Below are positions 40,721 through 51,745 of a stretch of 51,745 nucleotides of DNA, in pieces. Positions within the stretch are counted from its first letter, which is position 1. Each line of letters opens with the position of its first letter. The translations under genes and the position numbers were made by a program. Origin of the DNA: Candidatus Omnitrophota bacterium (GTDB lineage Bacteria; Omnitrophota; Gorgyraeia; Gygaellales; Profunditerraquicolaceae). The DNA lies in NCBI GenBank assembly GCA_028717245.1, contig JAQUOD010000006.1, positions 1 to 51,745 on the forward strand, given 5' to 3'. The notes under the pieces are model-generated. The model saw only the letters and a program-made list of their open reading frames with translations, ran no database searches and was not told the origin of the DNA.

Positions 40721-41509
40721 ATGTTTATTATTGGCGAATTAATCAACGGGATGTATCAGAATATAGGTAAGGCCATTCAAGAAAAGGATAAGGCCACAAT
40801 CCAGAAGTGCGCGCTGGAGCAGATTCAGGCAGGGGCAGACGCTCTGGATGTCAATTGCGGCCCGGCATCGCGTAAACCCATAGATGATATCCAGTGGCTG
40901 GTGCAAACCATTCAGGAGGTAACCGACAAACCCCTGGTTTTAGATTCCAGCAAGCCGCAGGTTATTGAATCAGGCCTGGAAATTATTAAAAATAAGGCGA
41001 TTATCAATTCCACTACTGCTGACCCCGAGAAGTTGGATATATTAGTGCCCCTGGCAAAAAAATACCATACCAAACTGATCGGCTTGACCATTAGCGCCAA
41101 AGGCATCCCGCAGAATAAGGACCAGCGCCTGGAATTAGCAGCTGCTATTGTTGCCAGCTGTAGCGAGCAGGAATTTCCCGTCGCAGACCTTTACCTTGAC
41201 CCTATAGTGCTTCCGGTAAATGTGGCCCAGGCGCAGATGGCAGATATCTTAGAGGTCATCCGTGAATTCAAGATTATTTCCGAACCCGCGCCTAAGAGTA
41301 TTGTCGGTTTAAGCAATGTCTCCCAGGGCACTTGCGTGCGCAGCTTAGTCAACCGCACCTTCCTGACTATGGCTATAGCTTCCGGCCTAGACGCAGCCAT
41401 ACTTGACCCGAATGATAAAGACCTGATGGACGCGGCTATTACCGCGGAATTGATTTTGAATAAACACATCTATTGTGATTCTTTTTTAGAGGCATACAGG
41501 AAAAAGTAG
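40721..41509 (+). CDS. acsE: Methyltetrahydrofolate:corrinoid Fe-S protein methyltransferase (AcsE/MeTr)
   Basis: MFIIGELINGMYQNIGKAIQEKDKATIQKCALEQIQAGADALDVNCG closely resembles the Moorella MeTr N-terminus as I recall it. GAAGGAG RBS. Start moved from 40628. Confidence 0.85.
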   Translation: MFIIGELINGMYQNIGKAIQEKDKATIQKCALEQIQAGADALDVNCGPASRKPIDDIQWLVQTIQEVTDKPLVLDSSKPQVIESGLEIIKNKAIINSTTADPEKLDILVPLAKKYHTKLIGLTISAKGIPQNKDQRLELAAAIVASCSEQEFPVADLYLDPIVLPVNVAQAQMADILEVIREFKIISEPAPKSIVGLSNVSQGTCVRSLVNRTFLTMAIASGLDAAILDPNDKDLMDAAITAELILNKHIYCDSFLEAYRKK

Positions 41510-41513
41510 AAAA

Positions 41514-41576
41514 GGGACAGGTACAATCTCAGTTTCGCACCAGGTGCGAGATTGGGTTTGCACCTGGTGCGAAATC
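41514..41576. repeat. GCACCWGGTGC / GTACCTGTCCC element, inverted half-copy (right flank of the acs cluster)
   Basis: The reverse complement GATTTCGCACCAGGTGCAAACCCAATCTCGCACCTGGTGCGAAACTGAGATTGTACCTGTCCC matches 35410-35465 at roughly 49 of 56 positions (hand alignment). Confidence 0.75.
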
Positions 41577-41582
41577 AAGATT

Positions 41583-41981
41583 ATGACGCCCAGAAAAATC
41601 CTCAGGCATATCTTTCGGTTCCGCGGTTTTGCGGAGAGCTTCAAACTTGCCATAAACGGTATTGCCTATCTTTTCTTATACCATCGCAACATGCGCATCA
41701 TTTTCACACTGGGTATTTTTGCTTTTATCCTGGGCTTATATTTTTTTAAGTTGAGCGCTATTGAGCTGGTGGCGCTGTGCATCACCATTACATTAGTATT
41801 TGTGGCGGAGATATTCAATACCGCCATTGAGATGACCATGGATATGGTCAAGGTCAAATACCACACCTTAATCAAGCTGGTCAAAGATATTGCCGCAGCA
41901 GTAGTCTTACTCGCCTCGCTAAACGCCGTTGCCATAGGCTACATTCTTTTTATCAGAAAACTCTTTAAATGGCAGAATTAA
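41583..41981 (+). CDS. dgkA: Diacylglycerol/undecaprenol kinase family protein
   Basis: Three TM helices and VFVAEIFNTAIEMTMDMV, the DagK-prokaryotic signature. ATG 41583 preferred over GTG 41544, which lies inside the repeat. Confidence 0.8.
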   Translation: MTPRKILRHIFRFRGFAESFKLAINGIAYLFLYHRNMRIIFTLGIFAFILGLYFFKLSAIELVALCITITLVFVAEIFNTAIEMTMDMVKVKYHTLIKLVKDIAAAVVLLASLNAVAIGYILFIRKLFKWQN

Positions 41982-42367
41982 AAAAAATCCTTCTTTTGTC
42001 TATAATCTTCCTTTATTTCATAACAGTGCTTAAGGGCGTTTGTTTTGCCCAAGTTAACCCCGGCCAGATAGAAAGGTCGCAGGAGATTATCCAGGACGAA
42101 GAGGCATTAAGAAACCGGATAGGGCAGGAAAAAAAATTCCTCATCAAAAAAATTATTGTTGAAGGCGCGGATTTACTGGCTCCGGAGGAAATAAAAAAGA
42201 TGACCCTGGCTTATGAAAACCACTGGCTCTCTAAGAGCGATATACAGGCAATCATCGATTTATTGAAAACAGCTTATAGGGAGAAAGGTTATCCTCAGCA
42301 ACCCCGTAAAACTGCGTTCCGGATAAAGAATAATACTTTAAAAATCCACGTTTTAGAAGATAAATAA
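41969..42367 (+). CDS. Secreted stand-alone POTRA-domain protein (paralog of the tpsB N-terminus)
   Basis: Signal peptide, then ERSQEIIQDEEALRNRI and KKIIVEGADLL..EIKK......N.WLS..DIQAIIDLLKTAYREKGY. This is colinear with residues roughly 35-140 of the next ORF. Confidence 0.6.
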   Translation: MAELKKILLLSIIFLYFITVLKGVCFAQVNPGQIERSQEIIQDEEALRNRIGQEKKFLIKKIIVEGADLLAPEEIKKMTLAYENHWLSKSDIQAIIDLLKTAYREKGYPQQPRKTAFRIKNNTLKIHVLEDK

Positions 42368-42403
42368 TTTATTCATTTTACAATATTTTCGTCTATAAAA
42401 TAC

Positions 42404-42432
42404 TTGACAATAACATTAGGTTGGGGCATAAT
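42404..42432 (+). promoter_or_regulatory. Promoter abutting the tpsB ATG (leaderless-type)
   Basis: TTGACA (42404-42409), 17-nt spacer, CATAAT (42427-42432). ATG at 42442; no SD. Confidence 0.45.
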
Positions 42433-42441
42433 AAACTAACT

Positions 42442-44148
42442 ATGGCAAGTAAGATTTCTATTTATTTATTCTTAGCGTGCTTACTCTTTTTCCCGAAGAG
42501 TTATGCCTGGGCAGCTACTACTCCTGAACAGGAGATGCGCTCGCAGGAACTGCAGGAAAAAGATCAGGCGCTCAGGGAGAAAATAGAAACCCCCAGGAAA
42601 GCCCCGGAAGTTAAAGAAGAACTACCAGCGCCTCCCGCTGCCCCCACATCTACCGAAAAAGTCTCCGTCAAAAAGATTAATGTTACCGGCGTAACCCTGA
42701 TTGCCCAAAAAGAAATCAATAAGATAGTCCTGCCTTTTGAAAATCAGGACCTTAGCCTAAGAGAATTACAGAGGGCTGCGGATTTGATTACCGATATTTA
42801 CCGTCAAAGAGGCTACATCACTTCGCGCGCCTACCTGCCCCCGCAGAGGATTGAGCAGGGCGTAGTAGAAGTCCGGGTAATGGAAGGTACTACCGGAGAT
42901 ATAGAGGTAAGAGGCAACCGTTATTTTAAAACCGCGCTCCTGAAGCGTAAGATTGCCCTGAAGAAAGGCGAGCCTTTTAATTATAATATTTTGAGGAAGG
43001 GCTTAACCAAAATCAATGAGCAGCCGGACAGGTTCGCGCGCACAGTGCTTACTCCGGGCAGGGAACCCGGGGCAACAGACGTAGTCTTGGAGGTAAAAGA
43101 TAAGCTGCCTATACATGTGGGTTTTGACGGGGACAATTTCGGCTCGCGTTATATCGATAAGCAGCGTTATAGCGTCAGGTTTACCCACAATAACCTTCTC
43201 GGGCTTGATGATAAACTGGCTTTTCAATATCAGCTCGGCCAGGCGAGCAGGTATTTTTTTAAAAGCATACGTTATCTGTTCCCCGTAACTTCTGATTTGG
43301 AAGCCGGCGCTTACGCGGCATTTAGCCGCGTGAAATTAGGGCAGGAACTGGAAGATTCAGGCGTCTTTGGTAAAACCCAGATTTACAGTTTATTCGCTAA
43401 CCAGTCGCTGGTAGATGAGGAGAACTTTAATTTCAACATCAGCTTCGGGTTTGATTACAAAGACATCGCCAATTACCAGGCCAGTACCATTACCAGCCAC
43501 GATAAGTTAAGGGTTGCCCGCTTTGGCCTGGATACAGACTTAACGGATAATTTCGGCCGCACAGTGTTCACTAATGAACTGGATTTTGGTATCCCCAATA
43601 TTATGGGCGGCTTAAAAAAACAGGACACCCAAGCCAGCCGCAGCGGCTCTGGCGGGACTTTTATCAAAGACGTCGTTAATCTGATCAGGCTGCAGAAGAT
43701 GCCTTTTTCCTCGCAGCTATTATGGAAGAATCAGATTCAGTTTAGCCCTAATATCCTGACTTCTGCTGAAGAATTTCAGATCGGCGGCATTGCCAATGTG
43801 CGCGGATATCCGCCTGCAGAGGCAGTAGGCGACAGGGGCTATGCTACGACATTTGAGTGGTCATTTCCTTTTTATCCCTGCCCCAAAGAGATAAAAGTCC
43901 CTTTATCGCAGGCAAAGCTCTATGATGCCCTTAGGCTTGCGATGTTTTATGATTTGGCGAATACACGCCTGAAGAGGCCTTCTACAACCGAAGAGAAGAA
44001 TAAGACCTTAAGTTCATTAGGCTGCGGCCTGCGTTTTAACCTGCCGGAAGATTTTTCCCTGCGTTTAGATATTGCCTGGCCGTTAGATAATACTCCTTCT
44101 GACGGCGACCACGCGCACACCTGGGTGCAAGTCTCTAAGACCTTCTAA
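42442..44148 (+). CDS. ShlB/FhaC/HecB family two-partner-secretion transporter (TpsB)
   Basis: Signal peptide, POTRA (VKKINVTGVTLI...DLITDIYRQRGYITSRAYLPPQ..EQGVVEVRVMEG), beta-barrel domain and C-terminal SKTF. ATG 42442 preferred over TTG 42421. Confidence 0.85.
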   Translation: MASKISIYLFLACLLFFPKSYAWAATTPEQEMRSQELQEKDQALREKIETPRKAPEVKEELPAPPAAPTSTEKVSVKKINVTGVTLIAQKEINKIVLPFENQDLSLRELQRAADLITDIYRQRGYITSRAYLPPQRIEQGVVEVRVMEGTTGDIEVRGNRYFKTALLKRKIALKKGEPFNYNILRKGLTKINEQPDRFARTVLTPGREPGATDVVLEVKDKLPIHVGFDGDNFGSRYIDKQRYSVRFTHNNLLGLDDKLAFQYQLGQASRYFFKSIRYLFPVTSDLEAGAYAAFSRVKLGQELEDSGVFGKTQIYSLFANQSLVDEENFNFNISFGFDYKDIANYQASTITSHDKLRVARFGLDTDLTDNFGRTVFTNELDFGIPNIMGGLKKQDTQASRSGSGGTFIKDVVNLIRLQKMPFSSQLLWKNQIQFSPNILTSAEEFQIGGIANVRGYPPAEAVGDRGYATTFEWSFPFYPCPKEIKVPLSQAKLYDALRLAMFYDLANTRLKRPSTTEEKNKTLSSLGCGLRFNLPEDFSLRLDIAWPLDNTPSDGDHAHTWVQVSKTF

Positions 44149-44168
44149 AATTCAGCCAAAAATTTATA

Positions 44169-44197
44169 TTGCAATTTATTAACAAATATGTTAAACT
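44169..44197 (+). promoter_or_regulatory. Promoter abutting the abiEi ATG (leaderless-type)
   Basis: TTGCAA (44169-44174), 17-nt spacer, TAAACT (44192-44197). ATG at 44204; no SD. Confidence 0.45.
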
Positions 44198-44203
44198 TTT
44201 GCT

Positions 44204-44842
44204 ATGAAACTAGAAGAGTTCATTAAACGCGTACGGGGTCTGTCGGTAATAGACGCCGAGAATTTACTTGCCGGCGTCACTAACCCGGCGGCGGTCAAAG
44301 TGCAATTGAGCCGTTGGCGTAAATCCGGCAAACTGATTAAGCTCAAAAATAATATTTATCTATTAGCCGAAAGTTTCCGTAAGGTGGATATTTATGAGCC
44401 CTATATCGCTTCAGTGCTTAAGAAACCTTCGTATATCAGCCTCCAGAAGGCATTTGAATATCACGGGCTCATTCCTGAGGGGGTGCCGGTTTATACCTGC
44501 GTTACCACTAAGCGCCCCGGGAAAATTATTACTCCAATCGGCACATTTGACTACCGGCATATTAAAAATAGCCTTTTTTGGGGGTACGATTCATTTACGG
44601 TGAATAAACAGCTGGCATTTATCGCTAGCCCTGAAAAGGCACTTCTTGATTTTTTTTATTTAGAGGGTTTGCAGGTTGATGACGGCTATTTGGAAGAAAT
44701 GCGTTTGCAAAATACGAGAAAAATCAATTTCAACAAGCTAATAGAATACGCCAAGAAATTCCAAGGCCCCGGGATTCTAAGGGCCGCTTTGGTCATTAAG
44801 AAATACGCTGTTAAGCGCAGAAGTGAGGAAAAGCATTTATGA
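44204..44842 (+). CDS. AbiEi-family antitoxin (type IV TA / abortive infection)
   Basis: N-terminal wHTH with LSRWRKSGKLIKLKNNIYLL and a C-terminal AbiEi-type domain. ATGA overlap with the downstream NTase. Confidence 0.7.
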   Translation: MKLEEFIKRVRGLSVIDAENLLAGVTNPAAVKVQLSRWRKSGKLIKLKNNIYLLAESFRKVDIYEPYIASVLKKPSYISLQKAFEYHGLIPEGVPVYTCVTTKRPGKIITPIGTFDYRHIKNSLFWGYDSFTVNKQLAFIASPEKALLDFFYLEGLQVDDGYLEEMRLQNTRKINFNKLIEYAKKFQGPGILRAALVIKKYAVKRRSEEKHL

Positions 44843-45642
44843 AAGATTATGTATTGGAACTGGTATCCGGCAAAGAAGGGTACAACGCTAAGCTTAATAT
44901 TATGCGGGAATACCTGCAGGCATATATTTTAAGAGTAATGCACGACGAAGGCGTATTCCGTTCGGTTGCATTCTTGGGCGGCACAGCGCTTAGATTCCTG
45001 CATGGCCTGCCGAGATTTTCCGAGGACCTTGATTTTTCTTTGGTCCAAAAACCACAGGTTAGGTTTGAGGCATTACTTAAGAAGATTATGCTGGAATTAT
45101 CCTCAGCCGGATATGATACTACGTTCAGTTATAACGATAAGAAGGCCGTAAATTCAGCTTTTATTAAATTCTCAAACCTGATGTTTGAAGCGGGGGTTTC
45201 GCCTTTAAAAAGCCAGAAATTTTCTATTAAGATTGAGATTGATAACAATCCTCCACAAGGGGCTGTCCTTGAAACCCAGCTGGTAAATAAATACTTCCCT
45301 ATTTCGTTTTTGTCTTATGATACCAAGTCGCTATTTACCGGAAAACTGCATGCGTTGCTATGCAGAAAATATGCAAAAGGCAGGGACTATTTTGACCTTG
45401 GCTGGTATTTATCAAAATGGAAAGGAATAGAACCGAATTTTTTACTTTTTAAAAACGGCCTCCAGCAGACAGGATGGAGTAGTGAGCTGCCTGATAAAAA
45501 TAACTGGAGAGGGTTAATTTATAAGGTTGTTGAGCGTGCGGATTGGAAAAAGATTAAACAGGATGTTGAGCAGTTTCTAGAAAACCCATCGGATTTGAAT
45601 ATTGTTACCAGGGAAAATGTAATGCAGCTCCTGCAGCATTAA
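44839..45642 (+). CDS. AbiEii/AbiGii-family nucleotidyltransferase toxin (DUF1814)
   Basis: FLGGTALRFLHGLPRFSEDLDFS NTase motif and KLHALLCRKYAKGRDYFD. Confidence 0.8.
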   Translation: MKDYVLELVSGKEGYNAKLNIMREYLQAYILRVMHDEGVFRSVAFLGGTALRFLHGLPRFSEDLDFSLVQKPQVRFEALLKKIMLELSSAGYDTTFSYNDKKAVNSAFIKFSNLMFEAGVSPLKSQKFSIKIEIDNNPPQGAVLETQLVNKYFPISFLSYDTKSLFTGKLHALLCRKYAKGRDYFDLGWYLSKWKGIEPNFLLFKNGLQQTGWSSELPDKNNWRGLIYKVVERADWKKIKQDVEQFLENPSDLNIVTRENVMQLLQH

Positions 45643-45763
45643 TAAAAGATTTCTGCACTACCTATTCAGGGATATAAAGGTTATTTTTTCACGAGCAAAA
45701 CTATATGATAATGTTAGGGTTACGGCCCCGGGGCAGGTTTCTGAAAGTTTTTAAAAATTTTCC

Positions 45764-45792
45764 TTGACATAACCTTATTTATCGGTTATGCT
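45764..45792 (+). promoter_or_regulatory. Candidate promoter at the tpsA 5' end
   Basis: TTGACA (45764-45769), 17-nt spacer, TATGCT (45787-45792). The first ATG of the ORF (45788) lies inside the -10 box, so TTG 45839 may be the real start. Confidence 0.4.
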
Positions 45793-48700
45793 TAATTGTA
45801 AAATAAATAACCCCTATTTTAAAATAACCTTCAAAAACTTGATTCCTCCTATTTATAAAAGAAACCTGAAAATTTGGGCGAGCGTAATAGCTGTGCTATT
45901 ATGTTCTCCCCATTTTTTATATGCCGCAGAAAGAGTCATTGAAAGCGACCAAGCCAGATTAATCCTGGAATCCAGCGCAGGCTGGAATATCCCGGATGGC
46001 GACACGCTAAGAATTACTTACACCGGAAGTATCTCTGACCCAGCGGCACTATTACGCGATACCAGCGGCAATGCCTCGTACTGGGGCGGCACATACGAGT
46101 CAAATTACAACACAGTATTAGTTAATACTCGCGGTATCATCATCGGGCCGAATGCTAACATTCAGGCCGCTTCTTTTATTGCCTCAACCTTAAATATCTC
46201 CAATGATGATTTTTTAAACGACAGGTATAATTTCTATAAAGTAGCCGGTAACAACGCATTCATCATCAACCGCGGAAAAATTATTGTGCGTAATGGCGGG
46301 TATGTGGCTTTACTCTCCCAGGCAGTAGAAAATAAAGGAGTGATCCTGGCAAACTTAGGCAGGGTAGTTTTGGCATCTGGCGAAAAGATGACTCTGGCGC
46401 TAGATGACATCAATGAAATTTCCGTAGTCATTGATGAGGCAGTAAAAGATGTAGTGTTAGGAGAAAACGGAGAAAGAATTGTCAGCGCGGTGAAAAATAG
46501 CGGCACGATTAGCGCCAATGGCGGCAAGGTAATTCTAACCGCCAAGGTCTTAAACAATGTCTTTAATTATGCCATTAATAATACCGGAATCATTGAAGCT
46601 CAGTCTGTAGCTAACCATAACGGCGTAATTGAGCTGACCGCCAGCGGCGCACCAATTGTAAATACCGGCACTTTAGAAGCCGGCGCCATCAGGGTCAATG
46701 CCCAAGACACAACGTTCATCAATAAAGGTAAGCTTATTGCCGGCTCTGAACCTACCCTGCCTGACAGCGGCAAGATTGCTATCCAGGTAGGCAGCCTGGT
46801 GCAGGGCGGCTTGATTTCCGCGGATAGAATAGTGACCGTAGAAGCAGAGCGGGTGGAGGTAGTTTTAGACGGCCCACTGGCTTTAGAAATTGACCCCTTG
46901 TTAAATATCAGCCCGGGAGTAATTATCCAGGCGCCTGAAGTTAAGATAATCGCCAAGCAGTTTGGCAGCAGGACCACGCCTTTAAATATCAACGCAGCCC
47001 TTACCTATATATATAGGACGCAAGGTGACATTAATATATTAGAGAGTTTAGGTATCGGAACGAGCGTATTGCTGCGCGGCCCTCCGGATGGCTTCGGCGC
47101 AATTGTCTATAACCGCGATACAAATCTTACCTTAGAGGCACAAGCCGGAGGTATAACAACTTATGATTCCGCCATTATTCGTGCCAATAATCTTTCTTTG
47201 ATAGCAAATCAAAACATAGGGTCGATTAACCAACACGTATATTTTACAGCTAACGCTCTAATCAAAGTCACATCCTATAACAGCTCTATATATATAGATT
47301 CAAATAATTCTGATATCTATATAATAGGCGAAGTCCGCGCCCACGGCGATATAAATATTTATTCTGGCACAGGCATGATTGATGTGCGTGGCCAGAATGC
47401 GATAGTGGCTGCCGAAATAGGATATATTAACCTTGAAGCAACTACAGGCATAATTAATAACTATGGGTTAATTTCAGCTCCCTACGGAACTGTACGTTTA
47501 TGGACATCAACGCTTATGGATGGAAGCGGCGGACGCATTATCTCCATAGACTACGATGTTATTACCAATCCTGAAGATGAAAGCGTAACTACCTGGATTA
47601 ATCCTAGTAGTAGCAACTGGAATACCGCTAGTAACTGGAGCGCGGGTGTTCCTAATGCGGCTAATGAGCGCGCTGTTATAAATACCGCTGGCATAACGGT
47701 TACTTTAAATGCCAATATTACCATTGGTGGACTCGAGATATTAGACGGGATCTTGTTGTTTAGTGACAATGCTAATAGAACTTTGACAATAGTAGATACG
47801 GATAATACGATAGGCGGTAACGCCGGTCCCGGTGGCCTATATATAGGTACTTCCGGAACGCTTACCTTTGATGATAATAGAACCGGACAAAAGGTGATTA
47901 TGGCCGGGAATTATACTAATCTGGGAATATTAAATCGCAATATCGGGGCAATAGAGTTTAACAAAGCATCAGGGACACAAACCTTAAATTCAGGTGGTAC
48001 TGCTGCTGCAAAACAGTTCTACGATATTACTCACTCGGGAGCAGGCATACTGCAAATTATTACCAATAATGTTACCCTAACCCATAACCTTACTGTTTCT
48101 GCCGGAACCCTGGATCCTAATGGTTTTACGATTACCGGTAGCGGAACAAACACGTTGACTGTAACAGGCAAGTTAATAGTTGATGCCGTAACATTCACCG
48201 GTAACTATGTAGATTGGGATACTCGAACCATCAATGCTGGGAGTACTATCGATTATCAGAATGCTAATCCTACCATTGACGCTAGTTTGACCTATCAAAA
48301 CTTACAATTTAGCGGCGCAGGTACAGCAGATGTAAATGGAACATTAACGATTCAAGGAGATCTTACCAATACAGGCGGTGGGACATTAGATTTTGGTGTT
48401 AATAATGTAACGCTTAGCGGGAATGTTGCAACGAATAACATTGCCAGTTTTATAACCACTGGTACAGTTTCAATGACCAAGACTGCTGGCACGGTCACAT
48501 TCACAGGTGATATGAACGTTGGTGCGCTGACCATTAATGGTAACGGTGGGACGCTGAATCTTGGAACAGGAACGCATACTATCAGTGGTACTATTACACT
48601 GACCGCAGGCACGTTAGATTTAGCCGACAGCTCGTTAGGCGGTAGCGGTAACATCACCTTTGGCGGCGGCACGCTAAGGTATGGAGGCGCCAGCACACAA

Positions 48701-51700
48701 GATATCTCTAGTCGTATAAAGAATAGCACTAGCGCGGTCAATATCGATACCGGCGCAAACACTATTACTTTTTCTAGTGTAATTGACAATAGTAATACCG
48801 GCGGTTTAACTAAAAAAGGCACGGGCGCCCTCATATTATCAGCCACTAACACTTACACTGGCACTACCACGATCTCCGCGGGCGCGCTTGGTTTCAGTAG
48901 CGTTAGCGCCATTCCGTCCGGTAACCTGATACTTAATGGTGGCGTACTTGCCACAAACGGCACTTTCAGCCGCGCACTTGGCACTGGCGATAACCAGGTT
49001 CAGTTTGGAGCCAATGGCGGCGGTTTTTCTGCCTACGGTGGCGCGCTTTCAATTACCGGCTTTACTGGTACCCCAGTCTGGAGTAACACTACTAACTTTC
49101 TTCCGTCCGGAGCACCGTTAATTTTTGGTGACAGCACTCTTTCTAATGATGTCGTCACCTGGACAAACGATTTCTCTCTGCGTAATGCTGCCCGCACCAT
49201 CACTGTTAATGATAATCCCAATACCACTGATGATTATGCTATTATCAGCGGCGTGATTTCTTCAAGTGGCACCAGCGGTAGCCTCACTAAAGATGGTTCA
49301 GGCGCTTTAGTCCTTTCAGCCACTAACACTTACACTGGCACTACCACGATCTCCGCAGGCGCGCTTGGTTTTAGTAGTGTTAGCGTCATTCCGTCCGGTA
49401 ACCTCATACTCGACGGTGGCGTACTTGCTACAAACGGCACCTTCAGCCGCGCACTTGGCAGCACTGGTACCGGTAAAGTTCGCTTCACCAACACCACCAA
49501 CGGCGGTGGTTTTTCTGCCTATGGTGGTTCGCTTTCGGTTACCATTACTGGTACTCTGACTTGGAATTCTACTAACTTTCTTCAAAGTGGGGCACCGTTA
49601 ATTTTTGGCGACAGCACCCTTTCTGATAATGTCGTTACTTGGATAAGTAATTTCTCTTTAGGTACCATTGGCACCAATACTCGTACCATTACCGTCAATG
49701 ATAATTCTAGTACTACAGCTGATTATGCTGTTATCAGCGGCGTGATTTCGGGCAGTGCCAATAATAGCCTCACTAAAAATGGCACAGGCGCACTTGCCTT
49801 AAGCGGCTCCAATACATACGCAGGCGGCACGACGGTTAACGCCGGTACACTGAGTGTTAATAATACTAATGCGCTCGGTACAGGCGCCCTAACAGCAACA
49901 GCAGTAGGCAATACAGTCAATTACAGCCTTGCGGGCGCGCAGACCATAATAAGTACTACTTACTACAATCTTACGCTCTCCGGCAGCGGCACTAAGACTG
50001 CAGGTGGTGCTCTTACAGTTAACGGCACTCTTACCAACTCTGTTACATTAGATATGGCTGGGTATACTCTCAGCGCCGGGTCTATCGTAAACACCGGTGG
50101 CACTATACGTTTCTCCGGGGTATCTAACGGCCTTGCCATACCAACCGGCACAGTGGAGTACTACGGCACAAACCAAACCGTAGCCACTGGTCTATACGAG
50201 ACCATTAATCTTACTGCGATATCAACATATACTCCTAATGGTGCAATCACAGCCACTGACCTTACAAATGCCGGAACTTTAGATATGGGCACTTATGATC
50301 TTGATGTGTCCAGTGTGACTAATAACGGCACAATTAGGCTTGAGGGTAGTAATGGCACTTTTTCCAGCATAAGCACCGGCACTGTAGAATACTATAATGC
50401 AGGCATTTATTTTAATTGGATAGCAGGATATACTTATGACAACCTCGTATTGTCAGGAGGGGGTACTTATTTACTTGTCGATGATTCTTTAATAACCAAC
50501 AATCTGACCGTGTCCGCAGGTACGACTTTTGACCCCAATGGATATTATCTTACCGGCAGCGGCATTGCTAATATTTCTGGGACTATTTTGGTAGATGCGG
50601 CAACTTTTTCCGGTAATTATTCAGGATTTAGTACCGTAACTTTTAACGTCGGCTCAACCGTAAATTATTCCTCCAGCCTTATTGATCAGGACATTGATAG
50701 CACCTTAGACTATACAAATGCAACTTTAGAGACTTCAGGTAGCGGTACCAAGACCCTTAGCGGGCCTGCTACTGTGACCAACGTGATAGTGGGAGTCAAT
50801 ACAACATTTGATCCCGCTGGAAATCTTCTTACCGGCAGCGGCACCGCGGATATCTTCGGCACGATTAAGGTAGATGCAGATTTATTTGGCAATAATTACG
50901 CATTTAGCGGTGGGACATTAGAGTCCGGCTCAACTGTAAATTATTGCAGGCTCGGTAATCAAGAAATAGATAATATGGCTCCTACGGGTTATAGTAATTT
51001 GGTTATTTCAGGCAACGGCACAAAGACATTGGGCGGCAATACTACGGTAAATGATCTGCTATCTATGCAGGGTACAGCCAGTTTGGCGCTTAGCACATAC
51101 ACTCTTACCTATGGTGGCTCTGCTACGTTAGAGTACAAAGGAACCGCCGTTCAAACAACAGGGCCGGAATTGGCGGCTATAATTCCTAACCTTATTGTTG
51201 ACAATATTAATGGCGTCATTTTAAGTAGCAGTCCGACGATTAGCGGCACGCTCACCTTAACCAACGGTAAGTTTTTGATCACGGTTACAGCGGTGACTGA
51301 TAGTAAGCCCTATAACGGTACTACTGTTTCGGCAGGCGTGCCTACGGTCACAAGCGGTAACCTGATAGCCGGCGACAGCATCACATCCATTACCCAGACC
51401 TTCAGCAACAGAAATGCCGGCACAGGCAAAACCCTGAACCCGGCTGTGACAATAAATGATGGCAACGGCGGCAATAACTATGCCGTGACTCTGGTTGCTG
51501 ACACTACCGGTGTTATTAACCAAGAAGCGATCACCATCACCGCGGTTACCGATACCAAAGGCTATAACGGCGACACCACATCCGCCGGAATTCCTACGGT
51601 CACCTCAGGCGCCATACAAGCCGGCGACAGCATCACATCCATTACCCAGACCTTCAGCAACAGAAATGCCGGCACAGGCAAAACCCTGAACCCGGCTGTG

Positions 51701-51745
51701 ACAATAAATGATGGCAACGGCGGCAATAACTATGCCGTGACTCTG
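45788..51745 (+). CDS. Giant TpsA-like exoprotein, 3'-truncated by the window end
   Basis: Not in the supplied track because it has no stop codon. I translated frame 2 by hand and found it open for 1986 codons to the last base. It has a signal peptide (KIWASVIAVLLCSPHFLYA), a TPS/haemagglutination-activity-like domain (VLVNTRGIIIGPNANIQAASFIASTLNIS; IINRGKIIVRNGGYVALLSQAVENKGVILA), autotransporter-associated beta-strand repeats (LTKKGTGALILSATNTYTGTTTISAGAL) and YDG-like repeats at the end. Confidence 0.85.
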   Translation, partial: MLNCKINNPYFKITFKNLIPPIYKRNLKIWASVIAVLLCSPHFLYAAERVIESDQARLILESSAGWNIPDGDTLRITYTGSISDPAALLRDTSGNASYWGGTYESNYNTVLVNTRGIIIGPNANIQAASFIASTLNISNDDFLNDRYNFYKVAGNNAFIINRGKIIVRNGGYVALLSQAVENKGVILANLGRVVLASGEKMTLALDDINEISVVIDEAVKDVVLGENGERIVSAVKNSGTISANGGKVILTAKVLNNVFNYAINNTGIIEAQSVANHNGVIELTASGAPIVNTGTLEAGAIRVNAQDTTFINKGKLIAGSEPTLPDSGKIAIQVGSLVQGGLISADRIVTVEAERVEVVLDGPLALEIDPLLNISPGVIIQAPEVKIIAKQFGSRTTPLNINAALTYIYRTQGDINILESLGIGTSVLLRGPPDGFGAIVYNRDTNLTLEAQAGGITTYDSAIIRANNLSLIANQNIGSINQHVYFTANALIKVTSYNSSIYIDSNNSDIYIIGEVRAHGDINIYSGTGMIDVRGQNAIVAAEIGYINLEATTGIINNYGLISAPYGTVRLWTSTLMDGSGGRIISIDYDVITNPEDESVTTWINPSSSNWNTASNWSAGVPNAANERAVINTAGITVTLNANITIGGLEILDGILLFSDNANRTLTIVDTDNTIGGNAGPGGLYIGTSGTLTFDDNRTGQKVIMAGNYTNLGILNRNIGAIEFNKASGTQTLNSGGTAAAKQFYDITHSGAGILQIITNNVTLTHNLTVSAGTLDPNGFTITGSGTNTLTVTGKLIVDAVTFTGNYVDWDTRTINAGSTIDYQNANPTIDASLTYQNLQFSGAGTADVNGTLTIQGDLTNTGGGTLDFGVNNVTLSGNVATNNIASFITTGTVSMTKTAGTVTFTGDMNVGALTINGNGGTLNLGTGTHTISGTITLTAGTLDLADSSLGGSGNITFGGGTLRYGGASTQDISSRIKNSTSAVNIDTGANTITFSSVIDNSNTGGLTKKGTGALILSATNTYTGTTTISAGALGFSSVSAIPSGNLILNGGVLATNGTFSRALGTGDNQVQFGANGGGFSAYGGALSITGFTGTPVWSNTTNFLPSGAPLIFGDSTLSNDVVTWTNDFSLRNAARTITVNDNPNTTDDYAIISGVISSSGTSGSLTKDGSGALVLSATNTYTGTTTISAGALGFSSVSVIPSGNLILDGGVLATNGTFSRALGSTGTGKVRFTNTTNGGGFSAYGGSLSVTITGTLTWNSTNFLQSGAPLIFGDSTLSDNVVTWISNFSLGTIGTNTRTITVNDNSSTTADYAVISGVISGSANNSLTKNGTGALALSGSNTYAGGTTVNAGTLSVNNTNALGTGALTATAVGNTVNYSLAGAQTIISTTYYNLTLSGSGTKTAGGALTVNGTLTNSVTLDMAGYTLSAGSIVNTGGTIRFSGVSNGLAIPTGTVEYYGTNQTVATGLYETINLTAISTYTPNGAITATDLTNAGTLDMGTYDLDVSSVTNNGTIRLEGSNGTFSSISTGTVEYYNAGIYFNWIAGYTYDNLVLSGGGTYLLVDDSLITNNLTVSAGTTFDPNGYYLTGSGIANISGTILVDAATFSGNYSGFSTVTFNVGSTVNYSSSLIDQDIDSTLDYTNATLETSGSGTKTLSGPATVTNVIVGVNTTFDPAGNLLTGSGTADIFGTIKVDADLFGNNYAFSGGTLESGSTVNYCRLGNQEIDNMAPTGYSNLVISGNGTKTLGGNTTVNDLLSMQGTASLALSTYTLTYGGSATLEYKGTAVQTTGPELAAIIPNLIVDNINGVILSSSPTISGTLTLTNGKFLITVTAVTDSKPYNGTTVSAGVPTVTSGNLIAGDSITSITQTFSNRNAGTGKTLNPAVTINDGNGGNNYAVTLVADTTGVINQEAITITAVTDTKGYNGDTTSAGIPTVTSGAIQAGDSITSITQTFSNRNAGTGKTLNPAVTINDGNGGNNYAVTL
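48839..49792 (+). repeat. 477-bp (159-aa) tandem repeat inside tpsA
   Basis: 48839-48990 and 49316-49467 are near-identical at the DNA level (TCAGCCACTAACACTTACACTGGCACTACCACGATCTCCGC...). A third, diverged unit starts near 49768. Confidence 0.85.
51283..51745 (+). repeat. 252-bp (84-aa) YDG-like tandem repeat inside tpsA, continuing past the window
   Basis: 51367-51493 is identical to 51619-51745 (127 nt). Protein unit: ITxTAVTDxKxYNGxTxSAGxPTVTSG..AGDSITSITQTFSNRNAGTGKTLNPAVTINDGNGGNNYAVTL. Confidence 0.9.

Follow-up and report, generated by a model that had tools for sequence, protein, structure and literature searches.

A conserved POTRA-only paralogue of TpsB beside two-partner secretion genes of Candidatus Omnitrophota, and a putative mobile AbiE cassette between tpsB and tpsA

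We analyzed a 51,745-nucleotide stretch of DNA from a Candidatus Omnitrophota bacterium (contig JAQUOD010000006.1 of assembly GCA_028717245.1; hereafter the window, to which all unlabelled coordinates refer) that carries a two-partner secretion (TPS) locus, with tpsB encoding the transporter and tpsA the large cargo. Upstream of tpsB lies a gene for a small protein, here named sPOTRA, which is a real and conserved paralogue of the first POTRA domain (POTRA1) of TpsB, is predicted to be exported and is tied to TPS loci. Between tpsB and tpsA lies abiEi-abiEii, a toxin-antitoxin (TA) pair. In the overall picture that we favor, with a probability of about 0.72, sPOTRA, tpsB and tpsA would make up a vertically inherited three-gene module and the AbiE pair would be an incidental cassette.

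A stand-alone POTRA protein encoded 5' of tpsB

The sPOTRA protein was divided into a signal peptide (residues 1-27), a charged helix resembling helix H1 of TpsB (residues ~31-52) and a single POTRA1-type domain (residues 57-129), and it has no linker, POTRA2 or barrel. Pfam searches returned POTRA_2 (E-value 1.7e-9; 37.8 bits against a cut-off of 24) and POTRA (E-value 6.1e-9; 36.9 bits against a cut-off of 21.3), both above the curated thresholds, and the AlphaFold2 (AF2) model placed the beta-alpha-alpha-beta-beta elements of a ShlB-type POTRA domain (strand 57-65, helices 72-80 and 89-105, strands 114-120 and 123-129) at a predicted local distance difference test (pLDDT) score > 90, preceded by a signal helix and by the long helix 31-52 at a pLDDT of ~65. 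The C-terminal 16-stranded beta-barrel of a transporter is lacking, since the open reading frame (ORF) stops right after POTRA1; sPOTRA is a paralogue of the TpsB N-terminus and not a transporter. A first-pass annotation, made from the letters of the window, had described the small protein as colinear with the N-terminus of TpsB, and alignment of the two bore this out (30% identity, E-value 3e-14), with a 20-residue gap at the position of the proline-rich TpsB linker and a helix motif (Q-I-x-R-S-Q-E...L-R-x-K-I-E) common to sPOTRA and the H1 region of TpsB. The best Foldseek match was CdiB (6wim), aligned over helix and POTRA alike, followed by FhaC (4qky) and then by POTRA fragments, including those of BamA and TpsB4. 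Because sPOTRA has a signal peptidase I-type cleavage site and a nearby cysteine is not conserved (no conserved lipobox was found), it is predicted not to be a lipoprotein. In the window its POTRA part is basic (isoelectric point 9.6) and TpsA is strongly acidic (4.5); across the sPOTRA family the isoelectric point varies.

A homologue search with the single sPOTRA sequence gave 3 proteins only, so that profile searches were needed, and these covered 1.84 billion cluster representatives. The profile yielded 470 matches, and ~150 of the 174 representatives retrieved were 110-160 aa long and matched end to end. Approximately 150 clusters at 50% identity share the architecture of signal peptide, H1-like helix and POTRA1, with 87-97% conservation at L47, G66, W86, Y103 and L124 and a clear signature in the helix. 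Members of the family are currently labelled as “POTRA domain-containing protein”, “hemolysin activation/secretion protein”, “BamA” or hypothetical. Two representatives, P0148 (312 aa) and P0139 (416 aa), carry the sPOTRA module as the C-terminus of a longer protein, the N-terminus of P0148 resembling the NadD-type gene that precedes sPOTRA in locus L011; such proteins reflect either the fusion of genes or stops that were missed.

All TpsB relatives in the genome collection are from Candidatus Omnitrophota metagenome-assembled genomes or mislabelled bins of the Planctomycetes-Verrucomicrobia-Chlamydiae group. The proteins of the window were mapped by tblastn onto 40 related loci (numbered L001 and upward). 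Among the 18 loci that could be assessed, sPOTRA stands directly 5' of tpsB in 16, as an ORF of 121-148 aa as called, or ~120-135 aa after start correction, while the genes on its own 5' side vary by clade (dgkA, topoisomerase, NadD, YajQ/AbiE and others). In L042 (3481-4326) a gene for a 281-aa AhpC/Redoxin-Pterin_4a fusion sits between sPOTRA and tpsB and is a second foreign gene tolerated within the module. L034 (123-569) is the sole case of an orphan sPOTRA among the 18: in place of tpsB, genes on the reverse strand come next, a response regulator among them. The sPOTRA of L030 was missed by Pfam and recovered by profile-profile comparison, and the apparently split sPOTRA of L012 proved to be a run of N in the assembly with no real disruption.

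A maximum-likelihood tree separated 18 sPOTRAs from 22 TpsB N-termini by one branch with a support of 100/99. The sub-clades of sPOTRA mirror those of TpsB, and the sPOTRA-less loci L004 and L006 are nested among sPOTRA-bearing lineages, a pattern that points to one old duplication followed by co-inheritance and secondary losses. For most close pairs of sPOTRA the ratio of nonsynonymous to synonymous substitution rates (dN/dS) was 0.14-0.27, with a single pair at 0.45-0.55, compared to 0.09-0.14 for TpsB; by this measure sPOTRA is under purifying selection, yet evolves faster than TpsB.

The secretion locus and its promoter-like boxes

The gene order and all gene identities proposed in the first pass were upheld by the ORF coordinates and by Pfam, NCBIfam and PADLOC searches: six forward-strand ORFs were recovered at the positions given there, and they run from dgkA through the secreted, POTRA-only sPOTRA, tpsB and the abiEi-abiEii pair to the large tpsA (Table 1). 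The stop of dgkA overlaps the start of sPOTRA by 13 nt, an overlap also kept in L001, L002 and L005, and 53 nt separate sPOTRA from tpsB.

Table 1. Features of the TPS locus and its surroundings, with positions in the window
Feature	Position	Strand	Basis and remarks
sPOTRA, 132 aa	41969..42367	+	Pfam POTRA_2/POTRA, AF2 model, Foldseek, family, tree, dN/dS
tpsB, 575 aa	42421..44148	+	Pfam POTRA_2 and ShlB, AF2 model; likely true start ATG 42442
tpsA, at least 1986 aa, open at window end	45788..51745	+	Pfam TPS, PATR and YDG; likely true start TTG 45839
Promoter-like box before tpsB, TTGACA-17-CATAAT	42404..42432	+	11/12 consensus matches; overlaps called TTG start
Promoter-like box before tpsA, 3' of cassette, TTGACA-17-TATGCT	45764..45792	+	10/12 consensus matches
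Putative mobile AbiE cassette (leader, abiEi, abiEii), ~1.48 kb	44164..45642	+	Conserved leader, differing flanks, contig edges, empty sites
Cassette leader, promoter-like TTGCAA-17-TAAACT ending 6 nt before abiEi ATG	44165..44205	+	Sequence reading; conserved across sites
abiEi, antitoxin / transcriptional regulator, 212 aa	44204..44842	+	PADLOC; NCBIfam below threshold; no Pfam match
abiEii, nucleotidyltransferase toxin, 267 aa	44839..45642	+	Pfam AbiEii, PADLOC, catalytic motifs
dgkA, prokaryotic diacylglycerol kinase family	41544..41981	+	Pfam DAGK_prokar 1.3e-26; upstream neighbour

Judged from its sequence, the locus is an ordinary type Vb (two-partner) secretion locus for which TpsB-dependent export of TpsA is predicted. 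TpsB matched POTRA_2 (E-value 2.9e-23), ShlB (E-value 2.3e-19), POTRA and Omp85 in Pfam, with two POTRA domains followed by an Omp85-superfamily barrel. Its AF2 model (pLDDT 83) consists of a signal peptide, H1 (residues 28-49), a disordered linker (residues 50-70), POTRA1, POTRA2 and a barrel of ~16 strands; as modelled, TpsB is complete by itself, and sPOTRA would therefore complement no defect. TpsA begins with a Sec signal peptide, as read from the sequence, and an N-terminal TPS domain (Pfam E-value 2.3e-11; 44.6 bits against a cut-off of 33.5), with a sub-threshold match to NCBIfam adhes_NPXG, and its distal part (48788-51745) matched PATR (autotransporter passenger-associated; E-value 5.9e-23) and YDG (E-value 3.6e-11); beta-helix-like repeats are also present in TpsA. 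TpsA thus appears adhesin-like, and its end lies beyond the window. In L018 (10001-11800) several short ORFs (81, 171 and 160 aa) stand in place of an intact TpsB homologue, probably reflecting a pseudogene or a poor assembly.

Both secretion genes are preceded by near-consensus promoter-like boxes. A TTGACA-type box recurs at the same relative position of the sPOTRA-tpsB spacer in most of 13 loci, and TTGACA-16/17-TAnnnT recurs between tpsB and tpsA in ~15 of 20 loci, whether AbiE is present or absent, which supports the separate tpsA promoter put forward in the first-pass annotation. The called starts of tpsB (TTG 42421) and tpsA (ATG 45788) overlap these boxes, and the true starts are probably those given in Table 1; the TpsA signal peptide aligns with those of L004 and L005 from ~45839, a position that also coincides with contig joints at empty sites (see below). 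No Rfam family, riboswitches included, was detected by a scan of positions 41400-46400, and on folding the tpsA leader showed neither unusual structure nor a cyclic di-GMP riboswitch.

On the 5' side, dgkA is context and lies outside the TPS module. Between acsE and dgkA, contig word depth at positions 41402-41602 rises to ~175, compared to 21-28 in the flanks, and many loose contig ends fall at 41510-41574 in several runs, which indicates a short multi-copy element.

The AbiE pair and its insertion sites

The first-pass annotation had made its AbiE assignment dependent on domain searches, and the assignment survived them. The 267-aa protein matched AbiEii in Pfam (E-value 9.9e-26) and PADLOC (E-value 9.4e-68), and the 212-aa protein matched AbiEi in PADLOC (E-value 2.2e-51, residues 1-195). 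AbiEi had no match in Pfam or in a sequence search of the PDB, and its NCBIfam TAA_AbiEi match (E-value 6.5e-10, 39 bits) is below the cut-off of 150. As that annotation had it, the two genes form a type IV TA or abortive infection (Abi) pair with a 4-nt overlap: abiEi lies directly 5' of the toxin gene and overlaps it (ATGA). The AbiEii motifs I (LGGT46), II (DLDF63) and IV (KLHALLCR169) are intact, and on this basis the toxin is probably active. Its subfamily numbers 3769 proteins at E-value ≤ 1e-10, many of them 65-90% identical, and those that are named are nearly all from Omnitrophota. An apparent break in the AbiEii of L005 is a run of N in the assembly and no real disruption.

A promoter-like site positioned for a leaderless transcript precedes abiEi and is conserved with the cassette, in support of the leaderless-type promoter of its own that the first pass had ascribed to the pair. 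This site agrees with the consensus at only 8 of 12 positions, and the promoter scan did not list it; the argument for a promoter here would come from conservation and not from the score. A 9-nt palindrome and an imperfect 17-nt inverted repeat (71%) overlap the promoter-like boxes and make the leader a candidate AbiEi operator. AbiEi/AbiEii was reportedly described by Dy et al. in 2014 as a type IV TA and abortive infection system, with examples in Lactococcus (pNP40) and Streptococcus agalactiae. The pair of the window resembles known AbiE systems in being bicistronic with a 4-nt overlap, in encoding a winged helix-turn-helix-type antitoxin followed by a DUF1814/AbiEii nucleotidyltransferase toxin and in having inverted repeats in the leader. 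It differs from them in belonging to an Omnitrophota-specific subfamily, in an AbiEi below the Pfam and NCBIfam thresholds and in leader repeats that are short and imperfect.

The window and the UBA1562-type lineage (L005, L033) are the only cases in which AbiE separates tpsB from tpsA; in ~12 other loci tpsA follows tpsB directly, across a spacer of mostly 80-120 nt and up to a few hundred nt. The same cassette (AbiEii 74-85% identical) occurs at unrelated places in other Omnitrophota. We compared nine independent contexts, namely the window and eight further ones sampled from close relatives: after a groEL terminator beside BrnT and ParE genes (L025-27); between the C-terminal end of an MBG/Big adhesin and PilZ genes (L022-24); behind a beta-helix protein, with MazE/ParE following (L028); downstream of an acs/RACo/CooC/acsE cluster that is the same as in the window but is accompanied by an HTH_17 gene and lacks a TPS locus (L029, 1-7807; the region 3' of this cluster seems to be variable); directly 5' of sPOTRA-tpsB-tpsA (L030/L042/L043); among mixed genes with no obvious theme (L031); beside Fic, a HigB-like TA pair and a transposase (L044); and in another TA/defence cluster (L045). 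The ~40 nt 5' of the abiEi ATG hardly vary across sites (L005, L022, L025, L027), and everything further out differs. Public contigs have loose ends at 44164-44166 and 45633, at the edges of the cassette, and contigs from a groundwater run, in which 44148 is joined to 45833/45839, represent relatives with an empty site. Taken together, these comparisons point to a self-contained mobile cassette. In the window it lies between the tpsB stop and the promoter-like box of tpsA, and since tpsB and tpsA each have a box of their own, the insertion would disrupt nothing.

The first pass had also raised the possibility that the insertion is a sign of horizontal acquisition of the secretion locus, and this was not supported. 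In relatives with as little as 52% TpsB identity, sPOTRA-tpsB still follows the acs gene cluster immediately (L012) or with dgkA between (L001 and L005); base composition is unremarkable. The TPS locus thus appears to be vertically inherited, with only the cassette acquired. The AbiE pair would have entered the 80-120-nt tpsB-tpsA spacer in a common ancestor of this genome and the UBA1562-type lineage and, on the simplest view, would represent the tolerated landing of a promiscuous mobile TA module with a leader of a putatively autoregulated type.

We also considered a functional tie between AbiE and the TPS genes, either as an addiction module that stabilizes a costly, repeat-rich adhesin or as a phage defence coupled to a surface protein used by phages. 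Independent insertions touch TPS loci twice and at different positions, in the tpsB-tpsA spacer (window) and 5' of sPOTRA (L030/L042/L043), and two more sites (L022, L028) abut adhesin or beta-helix genes. These two of nine and two further sites weigh against an incidental insertion and may exceed chance, and in ~470 kb of sequence searched no AbiEii was found away from these sites. By a rough reckoning the proximity of AbiE to TPS genes is above random placement, in a small and in part biased sample, the question having been prompted by the window itself; the two of nine at TPS loci are suggestive only. A distant AbiE pair also lies 3 kb 5' of sPOTRA in L037, but two housekeeping genes separate the two and we did not count it as adjacent. 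Against the tie, AbiE is missing from most TPS loci, and most copies of the cassette lie elsewhere, often in TA/defence islets with BrnT, ParE, MazE, Fic or HigB-like genes (four of the nine sites are ordinary islets of this kind). TPS spacers may simply be permissive, and we regard the tie as unlikely.

Possible roles of sPOTRA in TpsA export

We propose that sPOTRA-tpsB-tpsA is commonly a three-gene module in Omnitrophota, in which sPOTRA would have arisen once, by an old duplication of the tpsB 5' end, and would be a soluble periplasmic protein with its H1-like helix joined directly to POTRA1. Through beta-augmentation of its POTRA domain it would associate in the periplasm with the TPS domain or chain of TpsA, a very long and acidic protein, while these are unfolded, keep this cargo secretion-competent and hand it to the complete TpsB. 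The proposal draws on two points of the TPS literature: unfolded TpsA is bound at its TPS domain by the POTRA domains of TpsB, and the secretion competence of periplasmic TpsA intermediates can be short-lived (PMC5422565). By this analogy we tentatively suggest that sPOTRA acts as a periplasmic receptor or holdase for TpsA, at somewhat less than even odds. The stronger version, in which the TPS of Omnitrophota is a three-partner system and sPOTRA a required receptor or holdase that captures the TPS domain of an exceptionally long TpsA and docks this domain onto TpsB, we consider possible but doubtful.

Cargo length may be linked to the presence of sPOTRA: in this small sample the complete TpsA cargos of sPOTRA-less loci (L004, L006, L017) are 1050-1704 aa long, and those of sPOTRA-bearing loci (L008, L014, L030, L039) mostly exceed 2000-3300 aa, with ORFs running off contigs. 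Several observations weigh against a helper of this kind. Some functional-looking TPS loci (L004, L006, L015-L017) have no sPOTRA, which hence is not universally required; sPOTRA evolves 2-4 times faster than the TpsB N-terminus, a rate that fits an adaptor but also a dispensable modulator; and the helix motif common with TpsB could mean interaction with the barrel or competition with the H1 of TpsB itself.

These same observations favor a regulator, that is, a decoy competing with TpsB POTRA1 for the TPS domain, or an H1-like plug or dimerization partner acting in trans to gate the TpsB channel, which would time or limit export. The shared helix motif, the dispensability of sPOTRA in some lineages, its fast evolution and the lack of a linker, which in TpsB allows H1 to pass through the barrel in cis, are all consistent with such a role. 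However, a pure inhibitor that is encoded first in the module and kept across ~150 clusters is less parsimonious than a helper, and the trend in cargo length, small as the sample is, fits a helper for long cargos. We therefore consider a regulatory role rather unlikely.

A general helper of outer-membrane biogenesis (BAM, the machinery for beta-barrel assembly, or TAM, the module for translocation and assembly) that stands beside tpsB by chance is very improbable: POTRA domains are common to BamA, one source names a member “BamA” and the orphan copy of L034 has no tpsB after it, but sPOTRA branches with TpsB-type POTRA1, has its best matches in CdiB and FhaC and adjoins tpsB in nearly all assessable loci despite changing upstream neighbours. 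Least of all can sPOTRA be a decaying duplication remnant, an option raised in the first pass and refuted here, or a frameshifted or mis-assembled 5' piece of tpsB, even though it lies immediately upstream of tpsB and is colinear with its N-terminus: TpsB has a full N-terminus of its own to which sPOTRA is only distantly identical, the family is large, monophyletic (a single ancient clade), conserved in ORF length and selectively constrained (dN/dS well below 1), and a contig from an independent read set spans 41521-44187, across the sPOTRA/tpsB junction, with zero differences, which rules out an assembly or frameshift artefact. Landfill metagenome runs contain DNA of the window.

POTRA domains in isolation are soluble, and chaperone-like or substrate-binding activity is reported for some of them, for example those of Toc75. 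Soluble POTRA fragments (the TpsB4 POTRA 2mhj and BamA/Toc75 constructs) have the same beta-alpha-alpha-beta-beta fold as sPOTRA; they are laboratory truncations, whereas sPOTRA is naturally encoded and conserved. With the FhaC/FhaB system of Bordetella and with CdiB/CdiA the locus of the window shares a TpsB made up of H1, linker, a pair of POTRA domains and a ShlB-type barrel, and a TpsA that opens with a TPS domain and continues in long beta-helical repeats; in relatives of the window the two genes are adjacent. Unlike in those systems, there is an additional conserved gene for a barrel-less H1 plus POTRA1 paralogue, tpsB and tpsA apparently have promoters of their own, and a TA cassette separates them in this lineage. 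No CdiI-type immunity gene or toxin tip is visible in the window, off the end of which tpsA runs.

Additional partners of TPS systems are known, among them the glycosyltransferase HMW1C, HxuC, CdiC, CdiO, CdiI and BcpO, the last being in some species a small predicted periplasmic lipoprotein that is needed for BcpA function (PMC5422565, 2017). HMW1C, HxuC, CdiC, CdiO and BcpO are, like sPOTRA, encoded by extra genes of TPS operons and assist or modify the cargo, as is predicted for sPOTRA; unlike sPOTRA, none contains a POTRA domain or is paralogous to the transporter N-terminus (PMC5422565), and the lipoprotein BcpO differs further from sPOTRA with its signal peptidase I-type site. A survey of the Omp85/TpsB superfamily and full-text literature on stand-alone or soluble POTRA proteins returned laboratory fragments only, and the published studies of giant genes in Omnitrophota that were consulted mention neither TPS, POTRA nor ShlB. 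We found no published description of an sPOTRA-type TPS partner; the TPS module with sPOTRA appears to be a new form of a known system, and the AbiE module is of a known kind with an unremarkable role.

The AbiE part of the locus matters less: TPS spacers bounded by promoters tolerate mobile TA cassettes, and the nesting cautions against inferring function from such arrangements. Type V secretion is regarded as the simplest route, with one transporter and one cargo, and how very long unfolded cargos survive in the periplasm is an open point in the field (PMC5422565). For this question sPOTRA supplies a concrete candidate, and one that can easily be tested, for a dedicated periplasmic partner, and it is also a natural “POTRA in trans” experiment on the recognition of TPS domains by POTRA domains. 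It adds to the picture of how large surface proteins are exported in the uncultured and possibly host-dependent Omnitrophota.

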